Assembly (NCBI GenBank): GCA_024408235.1
Contig: JAKSVF010000002.1
Span: 9,789-73,788 of the forward strand
Direction of reading: 5' to 3'
Origin: Bacilli bacterium
Lineage (GTDB): Bacteria > Bacillota_I > Bacilli_A > RFN20 > CAG-826
Length of the DNA stretch: 64,000 nucleotides
The translations under genes were made by a program, and so were the position numbers. Within the stretch, counting starts at the first letter, position 1. Each line of letters starts with the position of its first letter. Below, one piece after another: positions 875-20,525 of the stretch. Under the pieces are notes generated by a model. That model was not told the DNA's origin and searched no databases. It worked only from the letters and a program-made list of their open reading frames with translations.

Positions 875-903
875 GGAGTTTAAAATAATTGTTGAGGAAA
901 CAT

Positions 904-3900
904 ATGTCTGAAGTAGTTAGTTTATCGCTTAGTTCTTTGCCAAATAAGACCTCGTATATTGAAGGCGATCATTTCGAGCCGTATGGAATGGTTGTGTTGG
1001 CTCATTACAATGATGGATCGGATAGCGTCGTGCCTTTTTACTCAATTAGCCCGAATGGCTCACTCAGAACCAGTGATACTAATGTCGTTGTCTCTGCCTT
1101 CAATTTAGACATAAGTGTGCCAATAACAGTTAGAACCGTCCCGACCTCTGGCTATTTTATCGATGTAAACCTTTCTTCCTCGGAGTATGGCGGCAATCCC
1201 GGAATTAACACAGCCGACGGCTCCATATTCTTCGAATGCTCCGAGATAACGGCTAGGTCTGGTCTGGCCTCTTTTGGAGTGGCAATCTGCTACAATTCGG
1301 GTATGACCGAGGTGGAGAGCGATTTGATAAAGGGACTCCCAAAGGGCTTTAGGACGACACTTCACCAATTCCTCATTCGGGATGGAGTCGATGATAGAGG
1401 CGATTCAACATATAAATATATAGATGACCTCGGATACGTTACGCGGTTCTTTAAGAGCGAGGACGGCTTCTATTATGACGGATGCGGGTTGAGGCTCAGG
1501 CTTGACGTCTACTCCAAAACAATAACAAATCCAATAGGCGACTCTATGTCGTTCGACCATGAGGGAAGGCTGACATCCATCAGGAGTGGGGCGAATCCTT
1601 TGAACGAGAAACTCATTACCTATAATGATGATGGCATCAGGACCGTCTATGACCAAAGATATCCTGATACTTACATAAAATTCTCATACCAGTTTGGATG
1701 GCTCAGGTGGATAAGAGTCTATCAGGATGGATCGCTATCGAGGCTTTACACCCTAATGGGTGTGCCGGGGCAGATATCCTCTATCGAGGAGGAGGCCTCT
1801 GGCCAATCAAGGACAATCTACCAGTTCAGCGTGAATGACAGGAACCTCATAAACAGGTTCGTAGACTGTATGACAAAGGACGCATACAGGTTGACATATG
1901 AGTTCGACACCGCGCTAAACGGCTACAGGTTCTCCTCCGTGAGGAAAGGATACATGGCCGACGGTGGGTTCCAGGAGAGGACCGGGCTGTTCTTCGCGGG
2001 CGCTTATTATAATCATTTGCATGATCGTGTGCTTTTTTCTCAGCTTCTTGTTGAAGATGAGAATGGCGTGATTCTTTCCATCATGTCCGATGACAAAGGG
2101 ATGCCTGTTTCCATATTGGAAAAAGATGCTAATTCGCAAAATGAGTATTACAGCATTAGAAGGGATTCAGGCATATGGCTGGGGGACACCGGAGGTTCTG
2201 GCGATTCAATTAACGGATCGAGGTCGATTTACGTTTGCGGGAATCGCTTTATAGCAAGCGGGCTATCATCTTCGGATCTTGGAGGGAAAAGAAATATTAA
2301 GCTCACTGGGTGGGCCAAGTTAGGTACTTTCAACGAAAAATCCGTCATCGGCGTAAGCGGTTCTGGGCTCGTTGCGGGATTTGTCGAGCTTAACTCATAC
2401 GCCGTGAATACCTGGCAGTATTTTGAGGTGGAGTTGTCGAGAGACTTAAACGACGAAGAGCCGATTCCGTTCAACTCGGTCGTTGTGTCTTCGAGAAATG
2501 GACTTGGACAACCTGTTGGTTGCCAACTTGCAAATCTGTATTTCGACAGATCGACAGGAAAAGAAACAATCTTCTTCTCTAATCACAACAATCCAGTCCA
2601 ATGGCGTGAAATAACCGAACTGAACCTTTGGTCGCAAACATATGGGGCGACATTAATCAATCTCCGGTTGGGTGATAGGGCGCTCAGTGAATCTGATTTC
2701 ATGGAGACCATAATATCATGGCACCTTTCAGGGAATGGTGGCGGGACCTTGTGGTTTTCGCGCGGCCTCCCTATCTCGTTTGAGGATTCTATGCTCTCAG
2801 GGAGTACGGATGGGGATGATTATCTAGGATTCATGGATGGCGATGTGACAAACTCTTCCATAGGGAACGGCAGGGATTGGTTCATAGCGACATCTGTGGA
2901 CGCGGATACAAAGAAGTACTTGATCTTGAGAGAGAATGGATATGAATTTTTAGTAAGGTCGAGAGATGGAGATGGTTACGTTGAGGAGAGATACGAATAT
3001 GATGCGAATAGGCGCCTTACAAGATATGTAAACAAAAAAGGCGGCTCCATCGAGTATGAATATTTCCTTGACGGGACGCTTAAAAAGAAAATTGCGAGGT
3101 GGAATGATGGGTCGGAGAGATCGGCTGTACTGTATCAGTCGGAAATGGACCAAGATGGGAGATTCTTTTCTCGCGAGAGTTCGGCCTCCAGAATCCGCTT
3201 GTATGAACAAAATAATGGGCTTTTGACCAAAACATCATTCCTCAGAGAAACTTTGAATGGTCAAGAAACGATAATGTCAGCAATTGAGTATGGATATGAT
3301 CCATATGGAACCGACATCACGTCTGTCGATTTCCTAGATGGTGAACGAGTTGCAGAGTCTCACTCGTATTCCAGGCCATCTGCCTCCTACAAGACGAACT
3401 ATTATACTGACGGAGTTTCATCACTCAGGGTCTGCAGGGATATCGAGTCCAATTCAGTCAAGGTCGGAGTCATGGGGGATGGAGCATATCGCGATGTTTT
3501 CTCGATGACTTCGGCAAATCTAATCCAGACATCTGTTTTTGACAACGGAACGGGTGACACCGCAAGAAGCGAGGACATAACGAAGGAATTTGACGAATAT
3601 GGCAACCTGAAGGATATCGCCCTTTGTGGGTCTCGAACGGTAGAGTTCCATTACTCAGGCAATTCATCGAGCGAATATGGAGCACTTCTTAGCTCCGTAT
3701 GCGATGGCATTTCTGGCAGAACCATCAATTTCGAACACGATGAGAGCAACCACTTAACCAGGATGAACGATGGAGACGTCGACATTCGCATTTCAGCAGA
3801 CGATGGCGGTGTGGCGGAGGTGAGGTTCCCGGCTGGAGATTCGTATTCATATGCGCTTGGTGAAGAGGGGGCAGCGTCAATTGCGACAGGAACCGCCAAC

Positions 3901-5478
3901 CGTCTTGCGGTATCGTGCTGGCATATCGAGAGGGACCAGCTTATGAGGGTGTCCTCAATAAAGAATCCGAATTATGATGAGAGCCTCAATCACTCATTTG
4001 AGTATTCCTTGGATGACCCGTCATTGATAACTTCGTACGATTTTGGCTCAGGAGCCTATTCGGAGTCGTACTCATACGTATCAGGCAAGATGTCGTCTAG
4101 GACGGCATCGTTCCTCAATTCGTCTTCCGGCGTTACGAGGACGTATTCCTGCCATTATTCATATGATGGGCTTGGCAGGATAATCCATGAAACGAACTCA
4201 AAACTTGGAATTTCAAGAGCATATGTTTACGACCAAAACGGGTATATGACATATTTCGGTGACAACGCAATAGCGTATGACGAATGCGGAAGAGTGTCGT
4301 CTTTTGGTGCCAATTCGTATTCTTATGACAACTACGGTAACAGGGTTTCGAGAAACGGGATGACTTACAGATGGGTCCGCGGGAACGTTCTCTCTGGTGT
4401 GGGTCCTTCTAGCTATTATTACGACTACGGAGGACGTAGAATCACGAAAGTCGACTCGATGAATCGTACCCACCAATACCATTATCTCTTCAATAAGCTG
4501 GTTGGTGAGGACGTTTCGGATGCTTTTGGCGTTGTCAGTAGAATCAGGTATTTTTACGATTCTCTTGGGCCGTGTGCAATGAGGACAATCGACTCTTATG
4601 GCGGGACAATCGACTACATCTACATTAGGAATGCGTCCGGTGACATAACCGGCCTTATGAATCAATTGGGAGTAATTGTCTGTATATATGTGTATGATGC
4701 TTGGGGTTCACATATTGTCTGTGATCGCGAAGGCAATGTGAACACGAGCGGTTCTTTCATCGGCAACGTAAATCCGTTCAGATACAGGGGATATTATTAT
4801 GATGTTGAGACAGGCCTCTACTGGTTATCCTCACGTTATTATGATCCAGAGATAGGAAGATTCATAAGTCCTGATAGTGTGGATTATCTTGATCCAACAA
4901 CTATCAGCGGTCTAAACCTTTATGCGTACTGTAATAACGATCCTATAAATTATTATGATCCTAGCGGACACATTGCGACAGAATTGATTGCAGGTGGTGT
5001 TGCAATATATTACTTGTTAGCTGGACTAGCTATCTTGGTTATTGGAACAGGCATTGTTATTGCTTCTCAAGGTGGATTTAAAAATATATCATTCGATGTG
5101 CCTTTTGAATGGCAAGTCACGTGGGATACTTTTAGTGATAATATTTCCAATGCATGGAATGATATTTCTCATTGGTGGAATGGTTTATTTGACAGAAATA
5201 CTTCGACCTCTTCTATTTCATATGGAACTAGTAATGATGTTGCAATTATGGAATATCAGAGAAAGAAAGCTGCTCCTAGAATTAAATGCAAATCAAGAAA
5301 AGAAGCGAAGCAAAAGGCTTTTTTAAAAGGCGGAAAACGAAAACCGATATTGCATTTTAACGGTCCTCATGGCCCTCATTTTCATCCTGACGACCCTAAA
5401 TTCAAGCATTGGCACTATTATTTTGGATGGTTGCTTTGGATGATGTTAAATGAAGAGGAGGATGAGTATGAATACTGA
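904..5478 (+). CDS. RHS/YD-repeat polymorphic toxin. It has an N-terminal Ig-like module, an RHS shell, a DPxGH core-end motif, and a C-terminal TM helix plus His-rich putative toxin tip.
   Basis: Uninterrupted ORF. I prefer the ATG at 904 (GAGGA at 894-898, 5-nt spacer) over the TTG at 889 in the ORF track. YD repeats include YEYDANRRLTRY, FDEYGNLKDI, YSYDGLGRII, YVYDQNGYMTYF, YSYDNYGNRVSR and YYDYGGRRITKV. The canonical core end is RYYDPEIGRFISPD...YAYCNNDPINYYDPSGH (DPSGH at 4957-4971). No signal peptide or lipobox is present. Confidence 0.9.
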   Translation: MSEVVSLSLSSLPNKTSYIEGDHFEPYGMVVLAHYNDGSDSVVPFYSISPNGSLRTSDTNVVVSAFNLDISVPITVRTVPTSGYFIDVNLSSSEYGGNPGINTADGSIFFECSEITARSGLASFGVAICYNSGMTEVESDLIKGLPKGFRTTLHQFLIRDGVDDRGDSTYKYIDDLGYVTRFFKSEDGFYYDGCGLRLRLDVYSKTITNPIGDSMSFDHEGRLTSIRSGANPLNEKLITYNDDGIRTVYDQRYPDTYIKFSYQFGWLRWIRVYQDGSLSRLYTLMGVPGQISSIEEEASGQSRTIYQFSVNDRNLINRFVDCMTKDAYRLTYEFDTALNGYRFSSVRKGYMADGGFQERTGLFFAGAYYNHLHDRVLFSQLLVEDENGVILSIMSDDKGMPVSILEKDANSQNEYYSIRRDSGIWLGDTGGSGDSINGSRSIYVCGNRFIASGLSSSDLGGKRNIKLTGWAKLGTFNEKSVIGVSGSGLVAGFVELNSYAVNTWQYFEVELSRDLNDEEPIPFNSVVVSSRNGLGQPVGCQLANLYFDRSTGKETIFFSNHNNPVQWREITELNLWSQTYGATLINLRLGDRALSESDFMETIISWHLSGNGGGTLWFSRGLPISFEDSMLSGSTDGDDYLGFMDGDVTNSSIGNGRDWFIATSVDADTKKYLILRENGYEFLVRSRDGDGYVEERYEYDANRRLTRYVNKKGGSIEYEYFLDGTLKKKIARWNDGSERSAVLYQSEMDQDGRFFSRESSASRIRLYEQNNGLLTKTSFLRETLNGQETIMSAIEYGYDPYGTDITSVDFLDGERVAESHSYSRPSASYKTNYYTDGVSSLRVCRDIESNSVKVGVMGDGAYRDVFSMTSANLIQTSVFDNGTGDTARSEDITKEFDEYGNLKDIALCGSRTVEFHYSGNSSSEYGALLSSVCDGISGRTINFEHDESNHLTRMNDGDVDIRISADDGGVAEVRFPAGDSYSYALGEEGAASIATGTANRLAVSCWHIERDQLMRVSSIKNPNYDESLNHSFEYSLDDPSLITSYDFGSGAYSESYSYVSGKMSSRTASFLNSSSGVTRTYSCHYSYDGLGRIIHETNSKLGISRAYVYDQNGYMTYFGDNAIAYDECGRVSSFGANSYSYDNYGNRVSRNGMTYRWVRGNVLSGVGPSSYYYDYGGRRITKVDSMNRTHQYHYLFNKLVGEDVSDAFGVVSRIRYFYDSLGPCAMRTIDSYGGTIDYIYIRNASGDITGLMNQLGVIVCIYVYDAWGSHIVCDREGNVNTSGSFIGNVNPFRYRGYYYDVETGLYWLSSRYYDPEIGRFISPDSVDYLDPTTISGLNLYAYCNNDPINYYDPSGHIATELIAGGVAIYYLLAGLAILVIGTGIVIASQGGFKNISFDVPFEWQVTWDTFSDNISNAWNDISHWWNGLFDRNTSTSSISYGTSNDVAIMEYQRKKAAPRIKCKSRKEAKQKAFLKGGKRKPILHFNGPHGPHFHPDDPKFKHWHYYFGWLLWMMLNEEEDEYEY

Positions 5479-5857
5479 TGATATTATAAGGAAATTCTGT
5501 GATTCTATCATTCTTGATGATAGAAAGGATAGAATGTATTATGAACTAACATCAAGAAAGCAAAAAGGTGTCGATAGATTTGATCACAATGCTGGATGTC
5601 TTATTAAGAAAGAAAAAATAATTCTACACGGTTCTTTGGATGAAATTGTTAAATATTTAAATGTAAATGTGAAACAGGATTCCGTTGTATTTATCGTCGA
5701 TCATTTTAACAAAACAGGAGAATGTCTCACAAAAGAAGAGTTTATTAAAAGACTAAACTCTGAGTATTTGGCTTTAATAGGAATAATATATCCGCATCTT
5801 GCGATAATCAAAGAAGAAAATCACTCAGGGAAATATATATATTTATTGAAAGTTTGA
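5468..5857 (+). CDS. Candidate cognate immunity protein for the RHS tip (small cytoplasmic protein, no recognisable family)
   Basis: The ORF overlaps the RHS 3' end. GAGGAGG at 5455-5461 lies 6 nt before the ATG at 5468, and in-frame ATGs also occur at 5450 and 5462. The product is 129 aa, with no TM segment or signal peptide. The position immediately after a polymorphic-toxin tip is the classic immunity slot. Confidence 0.6.
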   Translation: MNTDDIIRKFCDSIILDDRKDRMYYELTSRKQKGVDRFDHNAGCLIKKEKIILHGSLDEIVKYLNVNVKQDSVVFIVDHFNKTGECLTKEEFIKRLNSEYLALIGIIYPHLAIIKEENHSGKYIYLLKV

Positions 5858-6091: not shown

Positions 6092-6467
6092 ATATGATAC
6101 TAATTACTTTAAATGACGTTACGTATTGCATTACCAAAGGATCTATAGGAATTGATAAAACATAAGTATGTCTACACTTTAAATTTTTGGATATGGCTAT
6201 CATTCCATGAAATGTACCTTTCCCCAATCAGTCACTTAACTATCAGTCATATTTCCAACTATCGAGAATATATTCAAATGGTTGTACCTGATTTGTGGTA
6301 TCCAGAATCGGCTTAATCCAAGTGGGAAGAAATAAAGCGAGATGGATTCGTAATAGAAACGGGGGATCGGGTAAAAGTATGGTCGTTCTAAATTACAGTC
6401 CTATATTTACCAACGAGCTTAGCGTCTTTCTTTACTAAGCAACGACTCAAAGATGGAAGAAACAAAA

Positions 6468-6494
6468 TTAGCACTCAGTACTTGCGAGTGCTAA
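6468..6494. promoter_or_regulatory. CIRCE operator (HrcA binding site)
   Basis: TTAGCACTC-AGTACTTGC-GAGTGCTAA is a perfect match to the consensus TTAGCACTC-N9-GAGTGCTAA. It lies 47 nt upstream of the clpB ATG. Confidence 0.9.
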
Positions 6495-6509
6495 AATTGA
6501 TACTATAAT
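6482..6509 (+). promoter_or_regulatory. Putative clpB promoter overlapping CIRCE
   Basis: -35-like TTGCGA (6482-6487), 16-nt spacer, perfect -10 TATAAT (6504-6509). AGGAGGT RBS at 6527-6533. Confidence 0.5.
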
Positions 6510-6540
6510 GATGGTGTCGTTATGACAGGAGGTAACTCAT

Positions 6541-8661
6541 ATGCAAATGAATTATGAAAATGATGAGAACATCCTAGAGAAGTTCGGCAGAAATATTAAC
6601 GAAGCATGTAAATCAGGCAAGATTGATCCAGTTATTGGAAGAGATGAAGAAGTTCGTAAAGTCGTGCAGATTCTTGCTAGAAAAACAAAAAACAACGTTA
6701 TTTTACTCGGTGAACCTGGTGTTGGAAAAACCGCCATCGTTGAAGGCTTAGCCCAAAGAATCGTCAACAACGATGTCCCAAATACGTTAAAAGATAAAAC
6801 CATATATGAACTAGATATGGGCGCTTTAATAGCTGGCGCTAAATACCAGGGTGAGTTTGAGGAGCGTTTAAAGAACGTACTCAAAAAAATAAAGGACAGT
6901 GACGGAAAGATCATCCTCTTCATCGATGAGATCCACCTTATCGTCGGAGCGGGAAGGACAAGCGGTGCTCTCGATGCCTCAAACATGCTTAAACCAATGC
7001 TTGCGAGAGGTGAGATTGATTGTATCGGTGCAACCACTCTTAATGAATATAGACAATATATCGAAAAAGATAGAGCACTTGAACGTCGATTCCAGACCGT
7101 TATGATTGGCGAGCCTACAGTCTCTGACACAATCTCCATTTTAAGAGGGCTCAAAGAAAGGTTTGAATCATATCATGGTGTCCAGATAACCGATAACGCA
7201 ATCGTTGCCGCTGCAACATTATCAAATAGATATGTCACAAATAGATTCTTGCCAGACAAAGCTATTGATTTAATCGATGAGGCGTGTGCAGGAATCAAGG
7301 TTGAAGTTGAATCAATGCCAACTGAACTCGATGAGGTTGAGCGTAAGATTAGACAACTTGAAATCGAACGCATCGCTTTAGCAAAGGAGAAAGACGAAGC
7401 ATCTAAAATGAGGCTATTTGATCTTGATAAGGAACTTGAAGGGCTTAAAACCAATAGAGATTCTTTAACCGAGAAGTGGAAGAAAGAAAAAGAAGATATC
7501 AACGAGGCTAAGCGTTTAAAGACCGAACTAGAAAAAGCCAAGTTGGACCTTCAGACATATTTTGGAAACGGCAGCTATGAAAAAGCGTCTAAACTTCAAT
7601 ATCAGACCATCCCTGAACTGGAAGCAAAAATTAAAGAGATCTCCAATAAAGATGAAGGTGAGGCGCGCCTTATTGATGAGGTTGTTGATGAGGAATCAAT
7701 CGCAAAAATCGTTGCAAGAATGACGGGCATTCCTGTGTCCCGCATCGAAAAGGGGGATAGAGAGAAGGTCTTAACTCTTGAAGATACGTTAAAGAGACGT
7801 GTAATCGGGCAAAACGAAGCGATTTCTCTCGTTTCAAATGCAATTCTCCGTCAAAGAGCGGGTATTAAGAATCCAAACAAACCAATTGGTTCATTCTTGT
7901 TCTTAGGTCCAACCGGTGTTGGTAAGACTGAGGTCGCTAAAGCTTTGGCGGAAGCCTTGTTTGATAATGAATCAAACATCATTCGAATTGATATGTCTGA
8001 ATATATGGAGAAATATTCCGTATCTAGACTTATTGGAGCGGCGCCTGGATATGTTGGATATGAAGAGGGCGGACAGTTAACTGAAAAAGTAAGGCGTAAC
8101 CCGTATTCAATCGTCTTGTTTGATGAAATTGAAAAGGCTGACCCTGAAGTGTTCAATCTATTGCTCCAGCTTCTTGATGAGGGTAGATTGACTGATTCAC
8201 AAGGGCATCTCGTCGACTTCAAGAACACAATCATCATCATGACATCGAACCTGGGTTCTGAATTCATGCTGAACGGCGAGAAAGATAAGGTCGATTCCTT
8301 GCTTCACAAAGCGTTTAAGCCAGAGTTCTTGAACCGTATTGATGAAATAGTCTACTTCAATCCGCTTAATCGCTCAGTCCAAAGGTTAATTGTGGATAAG
8401 ATGCTCAAGGATCTTCAAATGAGACTTGCCGAGCAATATTTCATCTTCAATTTTACAGATGATTTAAAAGAAAAAGTCATTCAGGACGCTTATACGCCCG
8501 ACTTTGGAGCTAGACCACTTAAGAGATATATAGAAGACACTGTTGAAACGTATATTGCTAATCTCATCGTGAGACAGCAGGTTAAGCCTAATATCTCATA
8601 CATTGTTGGTGTTAACGGCGAAGGTTTGACATATAAATTCGACACGGCCGCAAACGCATAA
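6541..8661 (+). CDS. clpB: ATP-dependent chaperone/disaggregase ClpB, short form lacking the N-terminal domain
   Basis: There are two AAA+ modules ([15 protein letters not shown]; [15 protein letters not shown]). A long coiled-coil middle domain separates them. The motif [10 protein letters not shown] is present. At 706 aa the protein starts directly at the region preceding NBD1. Confidence 0.95.
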
Positions 8662-9612: not shown

Positions 9613-9645
9613 TTTTAAGAAAAAACGCCTTCGGATGAAGACGTT
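9613..9645 (-). terminator. Rho-independent terminator after the 445-aa lipoprotein gene
   Basis: The minus strand reads AACGTCTTC-ATCC-GAAGGCGTT followed by TTTTCTT. The stem overlaps the stop codon. Confidence 0.75.
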
Positions 9646-10981
9646 ATTTCGCGTTGTTGAATGTCTCTAGATATTTATCGAGTGATGGGATGCTCACTCC
9701 TCCGAAATCGACCATCGGAAGATACATCTCGTATGTATCGTGGTTGTATTCGAATACGTAGATGTAGGTGATGGTCGTGTCTTTAGAGGAATCGTCTCCA
9801 ATTTCATATAGAGGATCGATGTCGATATCCATGACGATTGCTTTAGGCTCAGCAACTTGGAAGATTGATCCATCTGGAGATTTGCTAGGGTTCAGCGAGA
9901 ATGCGTTTAAGATGTCATAAACATATGTTTTATTGGTGACGTAATAGACCTCGCCGTTATATTTGTAATCGCTCTTCAACTCGTAGTCGCCTTTGTTGAT
10001 ATATTGCATGTTGTTGAGCGTGGACATCCTAGAAGGGTAATTCATAAACTCAGCGATATCTGTTACATCCGATAACGGATTTGGGAAGAATCCGAGTTTT
10101 CCGTCTTGTATCTGGAACATGAAGCACCCTTTAACGTCATTATCTTCGGCGTTAGTTGGATCGCCATCGTGGTTCATCGCAACATATCCATATGTTCCGT
10201 TTGTGGTGAGCCAATAGTTTGGGTTTAACCACTCCTGGGCGTAGAAGGTCTCTTCAATGACGTCATATGAATTGATTTTGAAGTTGCTGCCTCTAATCAA
10301 AGCGCGCATATTTGCGAGATCTTCATCAGGTGTGAATGCGCCTGATTTTTGTCTGATCTGTTTTTCGGCATAGTCGATGGTAGAGGAGCCGAAATTTGTT
10401 GCCTCGTAGTTATAGACCATCTTCTTGTCGAAGAATTTAACCTCAAAGTTCAAAGTTCCTTCAAAGCTCGCTTTGATGTACTCAACATCGGCATAGCTTG
10501 TGCTTGCCATTCCGACCAATCCGAGGAATCCGAGTTTGAAATCCCTGTTCTTGATCGTTAGCTCTTTTGCGCCTTTATCGAAAACGACCTCATTTGTGTC
10601 GATGCCGTAAAGAGTGTTGATAATCTCGTTATTCCAGAGATCTGTTATGAATTTGCCTTCGGAATCGAGAATATACTCACTTTTGCGGTATGTATCTTCG
10701 AATCTGACGTTGTACATCCCCTTTCCTGAAACAAGGTAGATATCCATGCTGTCAAGATTGTGCTTGTCATAGCATCCAATTGCCCTTTCGGAAACGACGT
10801 AACGTTTTATGACATCACCATCTGCAATCTGATTGAGAGTGTAGTTCTTTGTCGATGTCATTAAATCAACCGCTTCGAAAAGAGATTCTGGGATAGTTTC
10901 CTTAGCGGATCCACATCCACTTAAAGTGGACATGGAGATAAGGAACAAAGATAGGTTTTTTAATGTTTGAGCATGTTTCAT
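9644..10981 (-). CDS. Lipoprotein of unknown function
   Basis: Signal peptide with a lipobox (LFLISMSTLSG-C-GS). No catalytic motif was recognised. The gene lies 2 nt from the upstream gene. Confidence 0.8.
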   Translation of the reverse strand: MKHAQTLKNLSLFLISMSTLSGCGSAKETIPESLFEAVDLMTSTKNYTLNQIADGDVIKRYVVSERAIGCYDKHNLDSMDIYLVSGKGMYNVRFEDTYRKSEYILDSEGKFITDLWNNEIINTLYGIDTNEVVFDKGAKELTIKNRDFKLGFLGLVGMASTSYADVEYIKASFEGTLNFEVKFFDKKMVYNYEATNFGSSTIDYAEKQIRQKSGAFTPDEDLANMRALIRGSNFKINSYDVIEETFYAQEWLNPNYWLTTNGTYGYVAMNHDGDPTNAEDNDVKGCFMFQIQDGKLGFFPNPLSDVTDIAEFMNYPSRMSTLNNMQYINKGDYELKSDYKYNGEVYYVTNKTYVYDILNAFSLNPSKSPDGSIFQVAEPKAIVMDIDIDPLYEIGDDSSKDTTITYIYVFEYNHDTYEMYLPMVDFGGVSIPSLDKYLETFNNAK

Positions 10982-10983
10982 TG

Positions 10984-13653
10984 TTATTTAATCTTGTCGA
11001 GTGCTTCCATGAGTGTGCATTCGTACTCATATCCATACTCTTCATCGCCCGAGACACCCCAGTCGCCAAATACAGCACCGGCATCATCAACACTGAAGTC
11101 TTTGTATGTGTAAAGAAGTGCTAAGCCAATTCTTCCTTCAGATGGTTCGATCATAAGATTCCAATTGTATTTGTTGAAATCCGCTTTGAGTTTGTATGAC
11201 TTGAGGTCAACGTTGGTGATCTTTGCGGTGATTCTACCGATGAGGTCTTGGCTATATTCGAATGTGTATGCGTCTGTGTACTGGAGAGTGCCTTTTGTGT
11301 CATACTGGCAATCTTTGATTGTGCCTGTTGCATCTTTGAAGTCGATCTGGATGTAATCCTGCAATGGGTTGTTCTCTTTATCAACGAAATATCCAGGAGC
11401 TGTTCTCCATGTTGTGTTAGCGACTCTAGCGTCATCGAATGTGTTAGGGCAGATAACGCATGTCAAAACTGTGGTGGATTTGTTCTCTGCATAATAATCT
11501 GACTGCATTGCAATGTAGACTGTTGTCTTCTCTGTCACTCCAGCCTTAGCCTTGATTGTAAGAGTTTCGTCTGTTCTTAAGAATTCGATTAAATCGGTAG
11601 CTTCGTTAACGACCTTGGTTTCATCAAATTCATCTTTGACCGTCTTTTTGACATATGCTTTTGGAGTGTAGACAACAGGAACGATTACTGAGTTATATCC
11701 AGAAACAGCTGTAGCCTTGACTGTGAATGAGTCTGTTGAGCCTGATAAGATTTCACATTCATCTGCTCTAGCTGTTCCGATGAAGTAGAACTGAGCGATT
11801 GATTTGCAGTATCCGATTGTGAGCTTCTTGTTGTATTTGACACCGCTGTTCTGGGTCTGGTTTGTGATGTTGACGTTTGTTTCACCAACCTTTGCAGCAA
11901 CGCCTTTTGTATAGGTGAAGTCTAAGAGGTTTTCAGAATCTCCGACAACTTCATACTGCCATGCATCTAATGCGGTTGATGGGGCATAGCTGAAGTTCTT
12001 TAATGCTTTTGAATCGCCGCCTTCAACTGTGTGGATTGAGACATAGTCTCCAAATCCGACATGGTCATCTCCGCCTGCTGCATCATTTGAGAATGTTATG
12101 TCGTTGATTGATGAGATGAAGTATTTATCGACGTCGAATGTTGGCTTTCCTGAGTTTGGATTACCGTATTCTGCTGTGTATGTGATCTTGGTTGTAACAC
12201 CGACTTTTGCAGTTGGCTGATGAGTTGTGAAATCCCACTTAGCCTTTGGATAAGAGGTGTACTTGTAGTTCATGCCAGTGACATTGCCTTCTTTGTTGAA
12301 ATTGAGGTCAATCTCATAGATCTTTCCGTCGTGCTCCTCGGTTTCGTTACCTGTGCCTGAACGGTTATTTTCAATAACAGAATTAACTTTGACGTTGAAA
12401 GCACCATCAGCCAATGGGGTTGAGACAACCTGATAGTCGACATAGCTTGCTGCGTTGATCACGGCAGTGGTGGAGTCGACTCTATAAGCCCACTTTATTT
12501 CCTGCTCTAAAGCGTTTCCAGCGTGCGCTGACCAGTTGACGTTTCTGATGCCGTATCTTTCGCTTGTGAGGTATCTAGATTCGTCGAACCATTTTCCGTC
12601 ACGGATTATTTCATCTTTCTGTAAGTCGCAGCGGTATGAGTATTCGTCTTTGCCTGCAGGATTTCTTAAATACTTGAAGTAATCGTTGTTTCCAAGTGAG
12701 TTTGGATATGTGTCAACGACTGTGAAGACGTCTTTTTCGAGGTCTGCTTGTTTATATGTGTAGTAGGTTTCCTCGTTCTGAAGGTCTTCAATTGTTGCTA
12801 ATGAGGTGTTGTTCTCGTATTTCTTGTAGTTATATGTGTAATTCAAGAACTCATCTCCGCTGCTATCAGTGACTGAGTAGGTTGAGTTTTTGAGGTTGAG
12901 AGGGTTGCATGTTTCATCACGCATTCCAGAACCTGCATCACCAGAGAAAAGTCTATATAAAGAGTCTGGGTCTGTTGGTAAAACATCAACGCTGGTTCTT
13001 ACAACTGAGAATGGGACTTCAGCCGCTGGATTATATCTGAATTCATATGTGCATCCTGTTGCAACGGCGAAGCCATATTCGGCAGCGCCTGGCCACTGAA
13101 TGTTGCCAAATGAATTAACATAGTCATAGCACTTGTAGTAATCCTGTTTCTGTCCCTGGACCATTAAGTTGAATTTGGCTACCTGTAAAGAGCTTGAAAC
13201 CTTTGCTGTTCCTCTGAATATTCCATCAGCGCCTTCGGTTAAGCTGCATGCAAAACCTTCGCCTTCGATTGTGATATCACCGGAAATTGTGTAGTTAACG
13301 GAGATTCTTGCGCCACCAAATGGCATTTTGAACTTATAAACGTTGTTTGTTCCTTCGATTGGGCTGTTGTTTACCAAGACTGCCTTGATTGTGAATGCTT
13401 CAGCAACACTTGTGAGTGTGAATGTGACTTCCTCATCGACTTCTGCCTCAGTTTTATCAATGGTGTATGTGATTCCGTCTGGTAAATTAGCAACGATGAT
13501 TTTGTATTTCTCAGCTGCCTGTGATTCTTGTGATTCTCCTACGTGGCTTGTGTTATCTCCGCCGTGTGAAGACTTATCGCCTTTTGGTCCGCATGCGCCG
13601 AGTAATCCGAGTACGAGGATTCCGCTTAAGACCAATAATGATTTCTTTTTCAT
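10984..13653 (-). CDS. Large lipoprotein (889 aa) of unknown function
   Basis: Lipobox LGLLGA-C-GP. The sequence is beta-rich and Asn/Thr/Tyr-rich. The start abuts the stop of the upstream gene, and an AGGAGG RBS lies inside that upstream gene's end. Confidence 0.85.
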   Translation of the reverse strand: MKKKSLLVLSGILVLGLLGACGPKGDKSSHGGDNTSHVGESQESQAAEKYKIIVANLPDGITYTIDKTEAEVDEEVTFTLTSVAEAFTIKAVLVNNSPIEGTNNVYKFKMPFGGARISVNYTISGDITIEGEGFACSLTEGADGIFRGTAKVSSSLQVAKFNLMVQGQKQDYYKCYDYVNSFGNIQWPGAAEYGFAVATGCTYEFRYNPAAEVPFSVVRTSVDVLPTDPDSLYRLFSGDAGSGMRDETCNPLNLKNSTYSVTDSSGDEFLNYTYNYKKYENNTSLATIEDLQNEETYYTYKQADLEKDVFTVVDTYPNSLGNNDYFKYLRNPAGKDEYSYRCDLQKDEIIRDGKWFDESRYLTSERYGIRNVNWSAHAGNALEQEIKWAYRVDSTTAVINAASYVDYQVVSTPLADGAFNVKVNSVIENNRSGTGNETEEHDGKIYEIDLNFNKEGNVTGMNYKYTSYPKAKWDFTTHQPTAKVGVTTKITYTAEYGNPNSGKPTFDVDKYFISSINDITFSNDAAGGDDHVGFGDYVSIHTVEGGDSKALKNFSYAPSTALDAWQYEVVGDSENLLDFTYTKGVAAKVGETNVNITNQTQNSGVKYNKKLTIGYCKSIAQFYFIGTARADECEILSGSTDSFTVKATAVSGYNSVIVPVVYTPKAYVKKTVKDEFDETKVVNEATDLIEFLRTDETLTIKAKAGVTEKTTVYIAMQSDYYAENKSTTVLTCVICPNTFDDARVANTTWRTAPGYFVDKENNPLQDYIQIDFKDATGTIKDCQYDTKGTLQYTDAYTFEYSQDLIGRITAKITNVDLKSYKLKADFNKYNWNLMIEPSEGRIGLALLYTYKDFSVDDAGAVFGDWGVSGDEEYGYEYECTLMEALDKIK

Positions 13654-14451
13654 TTACATTGCCTCCTTGAGTTCTGCTGGCTGAAATAATTCCAGTAAAT
13701 AGTAATTGTCGCTAACGCCTTTTTCTGCGTAGTAGATATAGATTCTATCAGCGCACTTGCTAACGTAGACTTCTTTGATGTCGTCTGATAAATCCGACTG
13801 AGTTTTATCGACATTACATGAGAAGAGGTAGAAGTGGCCATCAAACGCACCACCTTCTTCAACCCCTACGTATTCTAGGTCAAATACAGATTTTCCTGTT
13901 TTGCCTCCGTGTTCTCCGCCTGAGACAACCCCTGTTGAATACGTTTTGTAGACATCGGTTACCACGAATCTGTAGTTGCCGTATATTCCGGTTGATGTGT
14001 AGATATCGTAGCGGGCAACTGCCTTCATGATATTCTCTGCGGAATAAGGGGTTCTGACGTGCATAACCTTATTGAATGCGATCAGTCCGTCAGAATCATA
14101 GATGGTTAGGATAGAATCGCCAGCTTTATGGGTGATGACTTTGAATGAGTTCTTTCCAGTCATCTCAATTGTTGCGCTTTCAGGTCTAGAGCTTTTTACA
14201 TCGATTGTTGTGTCGGCTAAGCTTGTTGAGAATGTGCAAGGATATTCGCTTCCCGCTTCAAGGAATGCGTCGGTGCTGATCTCAATCATGTAGCCACCAA
14301 GATTTCCCGATGTTTTTTCCGTTGTTGAGAGCGTTACATAGCTTTCTTCAACCCATGGATCATCCGAGTGATTAGGTTTTGTTCCGCAACTGACAGTTAA
14401 TAGTGATAATGTCAGCAGTGGAAGCATCATTTTCTTTAATGATTTCGTCAT
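13654..14451 (-). CDS. Lipoprotein of unknown function with a Big_2-like Ig segment
   Basis: Lipobox LSLLTVS-C-GT. AGGAGG RBS upstream. The segment TIDVKSSRPESATIEMTGKNSFKVITHKAGDSILTIYD resembles a bacterial Ig-like fold. Confidence 0.8.
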   Translation of the reverse strand: MTKSLKKMMLPLLTLSLLTVSCGTKPNHSDDPWVEESYVTLSTTEKTSGNLGGYMIEISTDAFLEAGSEYPCTFSTSLADTTIDVKSSRPESATIEMTGKNSFKVITHKAGDSILTIYDSDGLIAFNKVMHVRTPYSAENIMKAVARYDIYTSTGIYGNYRFVVTDVYKTYSTGVVSGGEHGGKTGKSVFDLEYVGVEEGGAFDGHFYLFSCNVDKTQSDLSDDIKEVYVSKCADRIYIYYAEKGVSDNYYLLELFQPAELKEAM

Positions 14452-14528
14452 ATTTGAACCTCCTTAGGTTCCTTTGCTATCTATCTAAAATCCAATTATT
14501 GATTTGCTTGGACCGTATATTTTATCCA

Positions 14529-14547
14529 ATATTTATTGAATAAATAT
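14529..14547. promoter_or_regulatory. Perfect 9-1-9 palindrome ATATTTATT-G-AATAAATAT upstream of the three-gene lipoprotein operon
   Basis: Read directly from the sequence. It lies 78-96 nt upstream of the ATG at 14451. It is AT-rich, so a chance occurrence is not excluded. Confidence 0.3.
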
Positions 14548-14584
14548 AATTTATGGAACAATTATTGTGTGTTTGCAAGTAAAT

Positions 14585-14615
14585 TCATAAGAAAAGAGGC
14601 CTTATTAGACCTCTT
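14585..14615 (-). terminator. Terminator after the 702-aa lipoprotein gene
   Basis: The minus strand reads AAGAGGTC-TAATAA-GGCCTCTT (one internal mismatch) followed by TTCTTATG. It lies 16 nt after the stop. Confidence 0.55.
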
Positions 14616-14630
14616 TACCACATGTGTGTA

Positions 14631-16739
14631 TTAAAGTTTGAAGTCAGCACAGGTGAAGACGCTTCCCTTGAAGTTGTAAGCGTTATTATTTACCCAGTGA
14701 TCCTTGAAGGTGATCTTTCCGTCTTCCAAATACATTACGAACTGCTTTCCGATTTCTGGAGCTGTGTTTGCTGGTTTGCCCCAATAACCTCTTTCGACTA
14801 GGGTTGCGTTTAATGTGTTAGTTTTCTCGTCGAATGTAGCGGTGAAATCCCAATAATATTTGAAGTAATCCATGCCGACGATTTTCCCTGTGATGTTATC
14901 GTTTGAATCGCCGAATATGATCTGCGCTTTTACAGGGCTTCCATCATCGGAATAAGAACCTTCGAATACCTTGCCTGCAATATCGAGCGAGTTCCTTACT
15001 ATTTCTTCGTTGCTTACCACGACGAATTTCATGTCCGCCTTAAGCTGGATGACAACAATTCTAGAAGGCGAGGTCAGTTTTAGTGAGTCAGTTTCGACTG
15101 TTACTTTGTACTCATCTTCGTCAAAGAGAGCCGTTTCATTTGAAGTGAATAATAATGTGTGTTCGTCATTTGTGTACTTGTTCGCAAAAGAAGTGATTAT
15201 TGATCTATTGCCTTTTCCACCCCCATCAACATATCCAACTGAAACAAGTTTATCTTCGCCCTTGTAGACATCGTAAACCGCATTGTTGTCCTGAATGTTA
15301 ACACCATTGTGCATGACAACATTCGTGTCAGTGATGATCTTATTTCCGTCACTTGTTATGTAGCAAGATGCGTGGAGCGTATCTCCAAGATAGATGTTAA
15401 ATGATCCATAAGATACCGATCCAATAGTGAATATTTCATTCACCAAAGTGTAGTCTTCTGCCTTGGTGCCATCTTTAATCTTGAAGGCAACTGTAATGTC
15501 GTTTGCTCCATTTTGGAACGCGGTAGCGATTGTTGTTGCGTTGTTGCCATAAACAAGAATGTTGTTGCCTTTATACATATCAACGGTTGAGGTTCCGTTC
15601 AATGCCTTGATGACACCGTCAGTTTCTTCCTGCAAATAAAGTATGGTGGATGTGACGCCGGATCTTGAGGATGAATAATCAAACTTACCAGATGCGTCGA
15701 TGTCGATTGAGAAATCAGATATGCTATTAGCGTATGTTCCTGTTCCATTGAAATTGTAAGTTCTAATGACTGCGTATTTGCCTAATAAATCGCTATCAGC
15801 AAACGCAGAACCATCAATTTCGGTTACGGATAATCTGACGAGTTTATCTGAAGAGAATGGGCATTTGAACTGATATAAGTCTTCGGATTCAATGTATTTG
15901 AATTCAATCGTTCTCTTTGCGCCAGAAGTTACATCTGTGAGAGTGTATCCAGACAATTGTTTAACGATGTATCCATCGGTTGCCTCCGCTTTAACATAGA
16001 CAATGTCATCCATGTCGCATGTATCTATTTCGACTTTCTTTGTGTCGTTATAGACATGTAGTGCGATATGTGAGGAGTTATCGACTTGGATTTTGTATTC
16101 TTTTTCGGTTGGAGTGGTATCTTCCCAGGTTGCGACGATTTCCATCGTGGTGTCACCACTTGTGGCACTCATATTTTCTTCAGCAACAAAGTTGATATTA
16201 CCTTTAGCGTTGATTTTGTAGTTTGTTCCGTTGATTGTTGCGCCGGATGCGATGAAGAAGCCGTTGTCAGCCATTGCCATACGGATTTGAGCCCCGATGA
16301 CGAAGGTGTAGTAACCATCGCTTCCTTTTAAAACTTCCTCATATTCTCCGCCATCAACGGACATTGTTGGGTTGCCAACGAATAAATTATGCTCATCTAC
16401 TACACGAGCTTGCACTGTCTTAACGACTGGGGCAACAGAGGAACTTGAAGATGACTCAACATTGCTAGAAGAGGACTTTTCTTCGCTAGACGAAGATTTC
16501 TGTTCGCTAGAAGATGGTTTCTGTTCGCTTGATGAAACGATTTCGGAAGTAACTGGGGCCTCGCTTGTGGCTGATGTTTCTTCCTTTGAGGATTCTTTTT
16601 CACTTGTGATGACAGTTTCGCTTGTTGTCTCTGATGTCAATTCTTCAACTGAAGATTCTGATGTTATTTTAGGACCGCAGGCAACAATTGCTCCCGCTCC
16701 GATGATAGAAGCTAACACTAATAAAGGTTTTCTTTTCAT
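14631..16739 (-). CDS. Lipoprotein with a Ser-rich low-complexity stalk, unknown function
   Basis: I prefer the ATG at 16739 (MKRKPLLVLASIIGAGAIVA-C-GP), which has an AAGGAG RBS at 16744-16749. The 28-codon upstream extension in the ORF track has no support. The stalk reads SSSEQKPSSSEQKSSSSEEKSSSSNVESSSSSS. Confidence 0.85.
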   Translation of the reverse strand: MKRKPLLVLASIIGAGAIVACGPKITSESSVEELTSETTSETVITSEKESSKEETSATSEAPVTSEIVSSSEQKPSSSEQKSSSSEEKSSSSNVESSSSSSVAPVVKTVQARVVDEHNLFVGNPTMSVDGGEYEEVLKGSDGYYTFVIGAQIRMAMADNGFFIASGATINGTNYKINAKGNINFVAEENMSATSGDTTMEIVATWEDTTPTEKEYKIQVDNSSHIALHVYNDTKKVEIDTCDMDDIVYVKAEATDGYIVKQLSGYTLTDVTSGAKRTIEFKYIESEDLYQFKCPFSSDKLVRLSVTEIDGSAFADSDLLGKYAVIRTYNFNGTGTYANSISDFSIDIDASGKFDYSSSRSGVTSTILYLQEETDGVIKALNGTSTVDMYKGNNILVYGNNATTIATAFQNGANDITVAFKIKDGTKAEDYTLVNEIFTIGSVSYGSFNIYLGDTLHASCYITSDGNKIITDTNVVMHNGVNIQDNNAVYDVYKGEDKLVSVGYVDGGGKGNRSIITSFANKYTNDEHTLLFTSNETALFDEDEYKVTVETDSLKLTSPSRIVVIQLKADMKFVVVSNEEIVRNSLDIAGKVFEGSYSDDGSPVKAQIIFGDSNDNITGKIVGMDYFKYYWDFTATFDEKTNTLNATLVERGYWGKPANTAPEIGKQFVMYLEDGKITFKDHWVNNNAYNFKGSVFTCADFKL
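16440..16560 (-). repeat. Ser-rich tandem repeat (21-nt / 7-aa unit) within the lipoprotein gene
   Basis: TTTCTGTTCGCTAGAAGA (16497-16514) and TTTCTGTTCGCTTGATGA (16518-16535) are 21 nt apart. A more degenerate copy lies just upstream. They encode SSSEQK-type units. Confidence 0.7.
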
Positions 16740-16756
16740 AAAAAACTCCTTCTTAC

Positions 16757-16771
16757 TTAACGTAACGTTAA
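16757..16771. promoter_or_regulatory. Perfect 7-1-7 palindrome TTAACGT-A-ACGTTAA next to the lipoprotein gene RBS
   Basis: Read directly from the sequence. It lies 18-32 nt upstream of the ATG at 16739, in the divergent region shared with the PIN gene. Confidence 0.35.
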
Positions 16772-16916
16772 TTCGTACATATTTTGCATTAATAAATGAA
16801 TATTTAAAGAAAAAGATTAACAAAAAAATTTTTGTTAGCGGTTTTATAAGACAATAATTCGCAAAATCTTGAGTTTATGTGTACAATATCGGCCGTAAGG
16901 AGGTATGTGAAATTAC

Positions 16917-18590
16917 ATGTACATAGAGGAAACAAAACCCTCGAATCTTGCGAAGAACTTATTGATCTTCAACTATGTATTCGTGGACACTTGTTCCTTG
17001 ATGGAAGATTCGTTTCCGGCATTCATGGATTTACTCGTTAAATCTAGAAGCTATTGGAAAGGTGACTTAGAAGTCGTAATTCTTGGCGAAGTCCTTGATG
17101 AACTGAAGAAACATTCCGCAAATAGAGAAAAACCTGATTTGCGAGTATCGGCACTTCGCGCTTTGAAAATCATCAATCACGATAAGAGAAAATTATTCGG
17201 ACGAACATTCAGCATTTGGAAGTCCAAATCTGATGATGGGTTCGTCGATCACGCCTTATTCACGATTGTCTCAGATTTAAGAATTAAGAACAAAATCCTT
17301 GTTATCACACAGGATAAGACACTTGCTAGGGAACTCCGCAGCATGAATGACATGGAATCAACTAGAGGTAGATATATCATTATTGACCGAATCAATAGAG
17401 ATGGTGATCTCGAGGAGAATCCAGGCGAGAACGGATATAAACCAAATTCAAGGAAGATCGGTGCAGTTAACGCACCTAAACTGTTGACAGCATCTAAGGA
17501 GAGGAAACAACTACCTGCTCCAAAGGACGTAAAGGAGATTAAGGCTGCTCCTAAACTAACCGAGTCGTTAATGGCCATACAGTCGAACGACAAACGCATC
17601 AGCGCTAATATATCGAACCCAAACTATCCAGCAGATAGAAAAATTTCAGATATCAATAATCAGCTTGCTCTCATTAATAAAGAGAATAAGAAAGATATTT
17701 CCTCACTAAATCTTGCTTATGATGGTCAAAAACTCAGCGAAACCCTCAAAAAATTGAGTGCCAACGCTGATAAGAAGCCAGTAGAAGCAAAGAAGAAAGA
17801 GGAAGTAAAACAAGCGCAAAAAGCACCTAAAAAGGCAAAGCCAGAGCCAAAGGCATGGTTCGAGTTCGGGTTAAACCCATTCGAAGCGGCTATGAAGGCA
17901 TGCACAAATAGTTCAATCATTCCTCATAAAAAAGATATCGATTATGTGCGTGAGGTGCATGGTGAGGCTAACATCACAATCGAAGAATTACAGTCTAGAT
18001 TAGACAAGATCAACTTTGATAAGGTTGGAACCTGCCATGAACTGAGATTCAACACAGTTATCATTAAGGTCGAGAAAACTGAAAAGGACTACAAGGCTAC
18101 ATTGAACAAGGTTGAAGCTCAGAAAAAAGAGGCTAAACAAATAAAAGTAGAGCCTAAGAAAGATAAGGCTATCCAGGAAGTTAAAACGGTTGAAACATCT
18201 CCTGTAAAAGAAGAAGTCAAAACTGTGGAAGCACCTAAAGTTGATGAATCTAAAAAAGAAGAGCCAAAGCCAGTTAAAAAGAAAAAACAGGCTGCTCCTA
18301 AGAAAAAAGATGAAACGCCTCTAGAATCGCCAAAACCAGCGGAAAAGCCGGTTGAAGAAAAGGTTGAAGAGCCTAAAGCGGAGAAGCATTCTAAAGAACT
18401 CGAAGACGCTCTTGCTTCAGAGAAAGTTCTCAAATGCAACGCAAACAATCCTAATTATCCGGTTGAATCCAAGATTAAAGCTCTTGAGGCGCAGCTTGTT
18501 AAGGCGCGTGCTCTCAAAGAGAGTGATAGACGTAAACTTGGATGGGGAATCAGAGAACTTCAGCGTCGCTTAAGCGAACTCAAAAAATAA
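16917..18590 (+). CDS. PIN-domain protein with a long Lys/Glu/Pro-rich disordered region and a duplicated NPNYP motif
   Basis: The N-terminal ~150 aa carry PIN-like acidic residues (VFVDTCSL, LGEVLDELKK, GFVDHAL, VITQDKT). A strong AAGGAGGT RBS lies at 16897-16904. Two motif copies are present: SNPNYPADRKISDINNQLALI and NNPNYPVESKIKALEAQLVKA. Confidence 0.75.
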   Translation: MYIEETKPSNLAKNLLIFNYVFVDTCSLMEDSFPAFMDLLVKSRSYWKGDLEVVILGEVLDELKKHSANREKPDLRVSALRALKIINHDKRKLFGRTFSIWKSKSDDGFVDHALFTIVSDLRIKNKILVITQDKTLARELRSMNDMESTRGRYIIIDRINRDGDLEENPGENGYKPNSRKIGAVNAPKLLTASKERKQLPAPKDVKEIKAAPKLTESLMAIQSNDKRISANISNPNYPADRKISDINNQLALINKENKKDISSLNLAYDGQKLSETLKKLSANADKKPVEAKKKEEVKQAQKAPKKAKPEPKAWFEFGLNPFEAAMKACTNSSIIPHKKDIDYVREVHGEANITIEELQSRLDKINFDKVGTCHELRFNTVIIKVEKTEKDYKATLNKVEAQKKEAKQIKVEPKKDKAIQEVKTVETSPVKEEVKTVEAPKVDESKKEEPKPVKKKKQAAPKKKDETPLESPKPAEKPVEEKVEEPKAEKHSKELEDALASEKVLKCNANNPNYPVESKIKALEAQLVKARALKESDRRKLGWGIRELQRRLSELKK

Positions 18591-18594
18591 AATT

Positions 18595-18622
18595 AAGGTC
18601 TGAGTAATCAGGCCTTTTTCTT
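18595..18622 (+). terminator. Rho-independent terminator
   Basis: AAGGTCTGA-GTAA-TCAGGCCTT (9 bp including one G-U pair) followed by TTTTCTT. Confidence 0.8.
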
Positions 18623-18651
18623 ATAAAGAAAAGCCCAGCTTTCGCCAGGCT
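18620..18651 (-). terminator. Rho-independent terminator for the 588-aa lipoprotein gene
   Basis: The minus strand reads AGCCUGGC-GAAA-GCUGGGCU (with two G-U pairs) followed by UUUCUUUAU. Confidence 0.6.
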
Positions 18652-18669
18652 CACTTTTACTAGAATTGA

Positions 18670-20436: not shown

Positions 20437-20525
20437 ATTTTGTTCCTTTCATAACTTTCGGTTAATTACGATACCGAAGAAATTACCTAATTTAAATAAT
20501 TATTTACCGATATATCAAATTTCGA

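Follow-up and report, generated by a model that had tools for sequence, protein, structure and literature searches.

A small histidine-rich putative toxin module and its immunity gene at the C-terminal tip of an RHS protein from a Bacilli bacterium

The window analysed here, a stretch of 64,000 nucleotides (nt) from a Bacilli bacterium (contig JAKSVF010000002.1, positions 9,789 to 73,788 of the forward strand), harbours near its start an RHS (rearrangement hotspot) polymorphic-toxin gene and a cognate immunity gene. Both lie on the forward strand, and all positions given below are those of the window unless another locus is named. The RHS gene runs from 904 to 5478. It was listed as an open reading frame (ORF) of 1529 amino acids (aa) from TTG 889 to 5478, and ATG 904, with GAGGA 8 nt upstream, is the likelier true start. 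A terminator-like hairpin at 851-870, just 5' of the RHS start, ends the preceding gene. A Pfam scan revealed RHS repeats in two stretches (PF05593, E = 1.1e-7), as found in the shell of RHS toxins, and a weak Big_3 match at the N-terminus. The protein shows neither a signal peptide nor a recognisable export domain such as PAAR or LXG. The RHS repeat-associated core domain (TIGR03696, Rhs_assc_core; 4693-4971, aa 1269-1361) scored 81.9 bits against a cutoff of 32.5 and matched profile positions 1-76 of 76. The match stops exactly at the motif DPSGH (4957-4971), directly before a tip of 168 aa. This motif is predicted, by analogy with other RHS proteins, to be an autoproteolytic boundary that would free the tip inside the cage. 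What is new in each such system is the cargo, the RHS cage being a generic vehicle for delivery. Between positions 4600 and 6400 the GC content declines in steps: the RHS body has 44-51%, the tip 35-37%, and the immunity gene with the intergenic region after it ~30%. Such a drop at the core/tip junction is as expected for a swapped or recombined toxin/immunity cassette.

The variable C-terminal tip (4972-5475) is built from five elements. The first is a hydrophobic helix of 27 residues resembling a transmembrane (TM) segment, LIAGGVAIYYLLAGLAILVIGTGIVIA (4984-5064), with a Kyte-Doolittle mean over 19 residues (KD19) of up to 2.38, well above 1.6, the usual threshold for a TM segment. The second is a Trp-rich amphipathic helix (5104-5190) that probably binds at the membrane interface; 5 of its 29 aa are Trp, its hydrophobic moment is ~0.5, and it is common to the window tip and its closest relative (P0001) only. 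A model of the full 168-aa tip made with AlphaFold2 (AF2) had a predicted local distance difference test score (pLDDT) of 60 and was used for helix positions alone; it placed helices at tip residues 2-32 and 51-73 (pLDDT ~63-65). Next comes a Ser/Thr/Asn-rich linker (5191-5241), variable and unaligned among homologues, with a pLDDT below 50 at tip residues 74-87 of the same model, and probably disordered. The fourth element is a conserved module of 61 aa with an isoelectric point (pI) of 10.4 (5242-5424), the putative toxin. It contains a His cluster (5353-5424) with 7 His in 22 residues. The last element is a tail, GWLLWMMLNEEEDEYEY (5425-5475), in which a short hydrophobic helix (GWLLWMML), modelled at low confidence (pLDDT 69 dropping to 51), is followed by the acidic stretch NEEEDEYEY. 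This tail is kept by the close subfamily but missing from distant members, which end with ...HDHYYYPK, 2-5 residues past the family signature, and it is therefore regarded as a subfamily addition. The original prediction, made from the nucleotide sequence alone, had described the hydrophobic helix, the Trp-rich stretch, the His cluster and the acidic EEEDEYEY end; their positions hold, and the conservation of the His module and the recurrence of a hydrophobic segment in the family show that they go beyond chance.

The RHS gene is directly followed by the immunity gene (5468-5857), encoding a protein of ~129-130 aa. The ORF was listed from ATG 5450, while its start is probably ATG 5468, judging from a GGAGGA sequence at 5456-5461 and from the homologues, which begin at an MN equivalent to ATG 5468. 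The resulting overlap of 11 nt with the 3' end and stop codon of the RHS gene suggests translational coupling. The original prediction had implied that this downstream ORF might be a partner of the tip, and its conservation bears this out. Homologous genes were found directly downstream of the module in 11 further loci (L001, L004, L007-L011, L013, L014, L016 and L021). The window immunity protein shares 24-31% identity with the homologues from the first ten of these, with 19-20% for the two most divergent, and matches that of L021 at E = 2e-10. Residues R28, E32, K37, H46 and E123 are invariant. The ~130-aa family has no Pfam, NCBIfam or PDB match, and its members lack a TM segment or signal peptide (maximal KD19 of 0.92-1.35 in six homologues). 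In other loci this gene is replaced by an ankyrin-repeat gene of 257-295 aa on the same strand, namely in L012 (Metabacillus, 6231-7085), L017 (Sporolactobacillus, 6226-7089), L019 (metagenome, 3465-4238) and L020 (metagenome, 3272-4159). The ankyrin-partnered toxins are the distant members ending in ...HDHYYYPK. Ankyrin repeats are a known class of immunity proteins (PMC3482391). A co-oriented downstream gene of one of the two families is present at every locus examined, in no case encoding a TM segment or signal peptide; one toxin family is thus served by two unrelated immunity families.

A search with the tip returned 15 relatives, all aligning over the last ~70 residues, and on alignment evidence the conserved unit is the last ~60-75 residues of the tip. 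A profile of the module segment was searched against 1.84 billion representative proteins and matched 84 of them at E<=1e-3 and 35 at E<=1e-10. By this measure the His-module family is small but real. The module is the sole part conserved across the family. With residues counted from window position 5242, A26, H46 and H58 are invariant in an alignment of 67 sequences, and at least 90% of the members share R13, K20, A22, G30, P35, G44, H48, P49 and H56. The key residues are encoded at 5278-5280 (R13), 5299-5301 (K20), 5377-5379 (H46), 5383-5385 (H48), 5407-5409 (H56) and 5413-5415 (H58). The family signature reads ..P.a.RI+..S+KEA.e.A...GgGk.PI.H..g..GPH[YF]HP....H[DW]H[YF][YF][YF]. Basic and aromatic residues abound in the module, which has 16 K/R against 3 D/E. 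Members occur mostly in gut and soil Firmicutes; hosts named in a profile search of genome contigs include Erysipelotrichaceae, Clostridiales, Ruminococcaceae, Lachnospiraceae, Anaeroplasmataceae, Metabacillus and Sporolactobacillus, and the best match to the window in this collection is 65-70% identical. A tblastn search with the module against plasmid and phage collections gave no match. No informative name was attached to any family member in any source. NCBI assigns one member (P0112), recorded as an RHS core domain protein and located on a contig of 1.7 Mb, to the eukaryotic parasite Histomonas meleagridis; contaminating bacterial DNA in that assembly is the probable cause.

RHS cores carry the module, which also occurs after a PT-HINT domain without a hydrophobic segment (P0073, P0061 and L020). 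In L019 the module, with its own immunity gene, likewise lacks a TM helix. In one member (P0071) the module is joined by a signal peptide and, at the C-terminus, by LysM, a domain that P0144 also has. The varied carriers, together with the GC drop, point to a portable polymorphic-toxin cassette in which the His module is the toxic unit. It is very probable that the module and the downstream gene form a toxin-immunity pair with the His module as the toxin. Several other remnants of such cassettes were observed. Short cassettes of an RHS end, tip and immunity gene lie at 6001-7100 in L001 and L004, that of L004 adjoining recombinase and transposase genes. Two extra tips in L017 (8747 and 10846, +) have the same TM helix and truncated modules, and the tip at 5741-6234 of L007 is broken by a frameshift.

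Soluble immunity proteins are the usual mark of a toxin acting in the cytoplasm (Zhang et al. 2012, PMC3482391), and the solubility of the immunity proteins found here makes the target cytoplasm a likely site of action. The LysM fusions can be read differently, as the sign of an extracytoplasmic cell-wall metalloenzyme resembling zinc peptidases of the LAS type with an HxH motif; a non-enzymatic binder of nucleic acid or metal was considered alongside it. HxH motifs on beta-strands are indeed typical of zinc hydrolases, and P0071 has a signal peptide next to its LysM domain. However, the immunity proteins lack export signals, neither HxxxD nor ExxH is present in the module as a partner motif, none of the Pfam scans brought up a peptidase family, and LysM may be a mere targeting module. 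A cell-wall enzyme or a simple binder is accordingly the least probable of the alternatives considered here.

Searches for a known family were negative throughout, in agreement with the original prediction, which could name no matching toxin domain with confidence. Pfam and NCBIfam gave nothing significant for the tip, the module, 16 close and 67 diverse members, and for the window tip no Pfam family matched even at E<=1. Sequence and profile searches of the PDB likewise yielded no significant match for the tip or the module. The PDB matches of the tip were rejected as chance similarities of a low-complexity TM segment (AgcS, and the hydrophobic heads of Nhe/MakA at E 0.7-0.9), and so was that of the module to an NDUFS4-like strand-helix (E 0.22). 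DUF5633 was considered and found unsupported (best E 0.0057, 3/67 members), and the matching members were not re-found in two further scans. The sub-threshold names DUF2188, Luciferase_3H and Ntox28 were isolated and without support. The toxin module and its ~130-aa immunity protein belong to undescribed families.

An AF2 model of the 78-residue C-terminal segment, based on the 67-sequence alignment, reached a pLDDT of 85.6 and a predicted template modelling score of 0.69. It consists of a strand at residues 13-16 (RIKC), a helix at 19-29 (RKEAKQKAFLK) and strands at 36-38 (ILH), 46-48 (HFH) and 58-61 (HYYF), followed by the low-confidence tail helix. In this model the HxH motif H46/H48 lies on strand 3, and H56/H58 on strand 4. 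The residue between the paired His is aromatic or variable and points the opposite way, so that both His of each pair should face the same side. The four His would then cluster on the face of the sheet opposite the helix, and the conserved Arg and Lys at the strand-loop-helix N-terminus would join them in a His-lined and probably metal-binding active site. With the module model, Foldseek returned no PDB or BFVD match at E<=0.001; the best matches were weak (E>=0.42, template modelling (TM) scores <=0.45), and the top PDB match had an E of 0.42, a probability of 0.35 and a TM score of 0.39. The top PDB matches were mostly single beta-alpha-beta-beta-beta modules of the vicinal oxygen chelate (VOC)/glyoxalase type, having topology alone in common with the module. 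The VOC superfamily (glyoxalase, bleomycin-resistance proteins, FosA) indeed shows the same order of elements as the AF2 model. However, VOC proteins have paired modules while there is one per chain here, and the metal ligands would differ in position. Furthermore, the module family has no Pfam glyoxalase match, and the Foldseek VOC matches (best E 0.42, TM score 0.39) were not significant. No VOC toxin is known to us.

The original prediction had also noted a loose resemblance to nucleases of the HNH/EndoVII fold (GHH-like), and the module could be a highly divergent, miniaturised His-Me finger deoxyribonuclease (DNase) of this kind (HNH/EndoVII, GHH/EHHH-like). In common with the His-Me toxins Tox-GHH, Tox-GHH2, GH-E and Tox-HNH-EHHH (PMC5714182), the window has a small, His-rich, basic RHS tip. 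In the window's subfamily a beta-hairpin with His is followed by a short helix, and ankyrin immunity proteins are known to partner the HNH-type Tox-AHH (PMC3482391). Local similarity around GPH[YF]HP...H[DW]HYY is weak: in 3/67 members, 'GEHGPHFHP...HDHYYF' matched the C-terminal half of Tox-HNH-EHHH below threshold (8 bits where the cutoff is 25, E 0.25-4.8). However, Tox-HNH-EHHH was the sole HNH-type name among the 16 close and 67 diverse members, without a match to the AHH, LHH or WHH types; Tox-GHH, Tox-GHH2 and GH-E were never matched, and no other Pfam family of the HNH clan, nor Tox-SHH or Tox-HHH, appeared at E<=10 for the 67 members. A His-Me nuclease was not returned by the PDB profile search, nor was one among the best 50 of 138 Foldseek PDB matches at E<=10. 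The predicted beta-alpha-beta-beta-beta fold also argues against a GHH-like one. Most members end 2-5 residues past strand 4, so that the C-terminal metal-binding helix is missing, and H38, with which the first hairpin strand ends, varies, being N, D, G or P in several members. Without a helix after the hairpin and with a variable H38, the modelled module would not have the beta-beta-alpha-metal architecture (PMC5714182). The GHH-like resemblance was thus not upheld, and a divergent His-Me finger is quite improbable.

The hydrophobic helix shows a different pattern of conservation. Among 55 members in which both the RHS core end and the module were located, the window included, 46 have a 19-residue segment with a KD value of at least 1.6 between core end and module, and 41/55 reach at least 1.9. 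The position of the TM helix is conserved, its sequence is not. As a background, 120 relatives of the window RHS core were taken, none of them with the module; 34 have at least 30 residues after DPxGx, and 25/34 of these other tips start with such a segment, often with Trp-rich flanks, in a sample biased to short proteins. The original prediction had called it unusual for an RHS tip to begin with a TM helix; the frequency in these tips contradicts this, as do the published tips of Tse5-CT and Bacillus inaquosorum discussed below. That the helix would be a generic trait of all tips in this RHS clade was also considered, and is weakened by tips with other cargo at the same loci that lack it (L012 +2402 and +9028; L019 +1438). 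Trp-rich sequence directly flanking a TM helix was also seen at the start of many unrelated tips (P0148-P0267), for example EWWKFWEWDWQLIGVVV... and AWWNWLLGALTTVV...; to our knowledge, such a recurrent Trp-plus-TM element preceding a toxin has not been described. Since module and immunity gene stay together where the helix is missing, helix and Trp-rich segment are read as a leader for membrane insertion or translocation, which by analogy with known systems is the probable role of the TM helix. Of the two roles first suggested for it, translocation element and toxic principle, the former is therefore the more likely.

Membrane-acting RHS tips are documented. Tse5-CT is an RHS-encapsulated TM pore former, neutralised by an immunity protein, Tsi5, with two TM regions (PMC9637101, PMC10684867), and for the C-terminal domain (CTD) of the B. 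inaquosorum teneurin-like protein (BiTLP), which permeabilises cells from the outside, a TM region is predicted (PMC13018210). As proposed for the window protein, a TM segment directly follows the autoproteolytic DPxGx site and is shielded in the shell. The tips of Tse5-CT and the B. inaquosorum CTD are hydrophobic throughout, while in the window tip one TM helix and one amphipathic helix make up ~40%, and the remainder is linker and soluble basic domain. It could accordingly be proposed that the window tip is itself a membrane toxin, in which the TM helix, the Trp-rich helix and the C-terminal tail depolarise or permeabilise the membrane while the His module binds anionic lipids or gates a pore. 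The strong TM segment (KD 2.38) next to an amphipathic Trp-rich helix, its occurrence in most of the family (46/55) and the basic and aromatic character of the module are all in agreement with this. Related loci have neighbouring RHS tips of 157-199 aa (L008 +3959 and L009 +129) that are hydrophobic throughout, with glycine-zipper-like GxxxG runs; they probably represent cargo of this RHS clade that disrupts membranes. Moreover, EsxX depolarises the membrane and yet has a cytosolic immunity protein (PMC12744356). However, it is the soluble module that is conserved and not the TM sequence, and module and immunity gene occur together without a TM helix, both after PT-HINT and in L019. All immunity proteins found are either soluble (maximal KD19 <=1.35) or ankyrin proteins, in contrast to Tsi5, an integral membrane protein. 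Finally, the PDB searches with tip and module profiles gave no significant match, Tse5 (2023 cryo-EM structure) being presumed present among the chains searched. A membrane-acting toxin is on balance unlikely, though it is the strongest of the alternatives.

It is proposed instead that the tip is a cargo of two parts. Tip residues 1-90, comprising the TM helix, the Trp-rich helix and the linker, would form a membrane-insertion leader that is shielded within the RHS shell while in the producer. Autoproteolysis at DPSGH, as in the RHS/Tc family, would allow the unfolded tip to be freed at the target, where the leader would partition into the cytoplasmic membrane and either pull the cargo across or tether it at the inner face. 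The second part, the basic module in the last ~61-78 residues, would be the toxin, passing the membrane and folding on the cytoplasmic side. There the His cluster, aided by R13 and K20, might attack nucleic acid or another phosphodiester substrate. In kin cells the soluble immunity protein would block the module by direct binding. The analysis itself shows the family and its conservation, the predicted fold, the synteny with immunity genes and the modular carriers, whereas autoproteolysis, membrane translocation, action in the cytoplasm, metal binding and nuclease/phosphodiesterase chemistry are inferred; for the chain as a whole, short of the specific chemistry, a probability of about 0.5 is estimated.

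A number of observations weigh against this two-part cargo. No homology or structural match backs any specific chemistry, the best Foldseek E being 0.42. The His clustering was deduced from strand register alone. A site made of His only, with no acidic residue conserved in the module, would be unusual for an Mg-dependent nuclease, and a pI of 7.6-8.7 makes the immunity proteins neutral or slightly basic, where acidic inhibitors are typical of many nucleases; both are mild arguments against a nuclease. The close subfamily is hydrophobic at both ends, which would also fit a membrane-resident toxin, the one or two members fused to LysM suggest a link to the cell wall, and the RHS protein lacks a signal peptide. 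On the other side stand PT1 and PT7, small, basic polymorphic toxins with a novel fold and an essential His, which are metal-dependent DNases (10.1101/2021.10.19.465003). Like the module, they are short basic domains of new fold with unannotated immunity proteins. The PDB searches showed no sequence or structural relation between them and the module, their structures being presumed included. By analogy, a nuclease or phosphodiesterase activity is the likeliest one for the module, and is put forward tentatively. A more far-reaching proposal is that the module is a minimal single beta-alpha-beta-beta-beta unit with an all-His metal centre, possibly a VOC-like dimer, representing a new catalytic toxin class delivered by a cage-shielded TM/Trp-rich leader that crosses the target membrane unaided. 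This combination is doubtful.

In its general organisation the locus resembles the RHS/YD systems, such as WapA, type VI secretion system (T6SS) Rhs effectors and TcC (PMC3482391). It shares with these the RHS repeats, a core end of the DPxG-x type, a variable tip, a downstream immunity gene, the GC drop at the core/tip junction and the occurrence of orphan tip-plus-immunity cassettes (L001, L004 and L017). It differs from them in that the toxin module and the immunity protein have no described family and the window protein has no recognisable export domain. The proposed leader has a parallel in T6SS Rhs proteins, in which an N-terminal TM domain (TMD) associated with prePAAR is proposed to carry cytoplasmic toxins across the target membrane (10.1101/2025.10.28.685041). 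However, the prePAAR TMD lies outside the cage and requires Eag chaperones, whereas the window helix is part of the tip that would be encapsulated and cleaved, and belongs to a Gram-positive lineage.

Further along the window two other features were observed. The gene at 6541-8661 encodes a ClpB-like AAA+ protein of just 706 aa, for which Clp_N was not among the listed Pfam matches; N-terminally short ClpB proteins are known from Mollicutes-like lineages. The region 9644-22532 harbours large ORFs of 445, 889, 265, 730, 557, 588 and 668 aa without a Pfam match, at least two of them with lipoprotein-type N-termini (…LSGCGS, …LGACGP), and these are probably lineage-specific surface lipoproteins.

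The RHS toxin-immunity locus is genuine; leader helices like the one it has are common and have been documented before. New polymorphic-toxin domains turn up often, and if the activity of the module is that of an ordinary DNase, it would be one more in a long list. If a domain of ~60 residues with four His kills cells, it would be among the smallest enzymatic toxins known and easy to study. A TM leader linked to its cargo within a cage would also make a tractable model for the membrane crossing of RHS toxins, a step that has been called undefined in the field (10.1101/2025.10.28.685041). A self-sufficient, cage-shielded leader, if true, would answer how Rhs C-terminal domains reach the cytoplasm.

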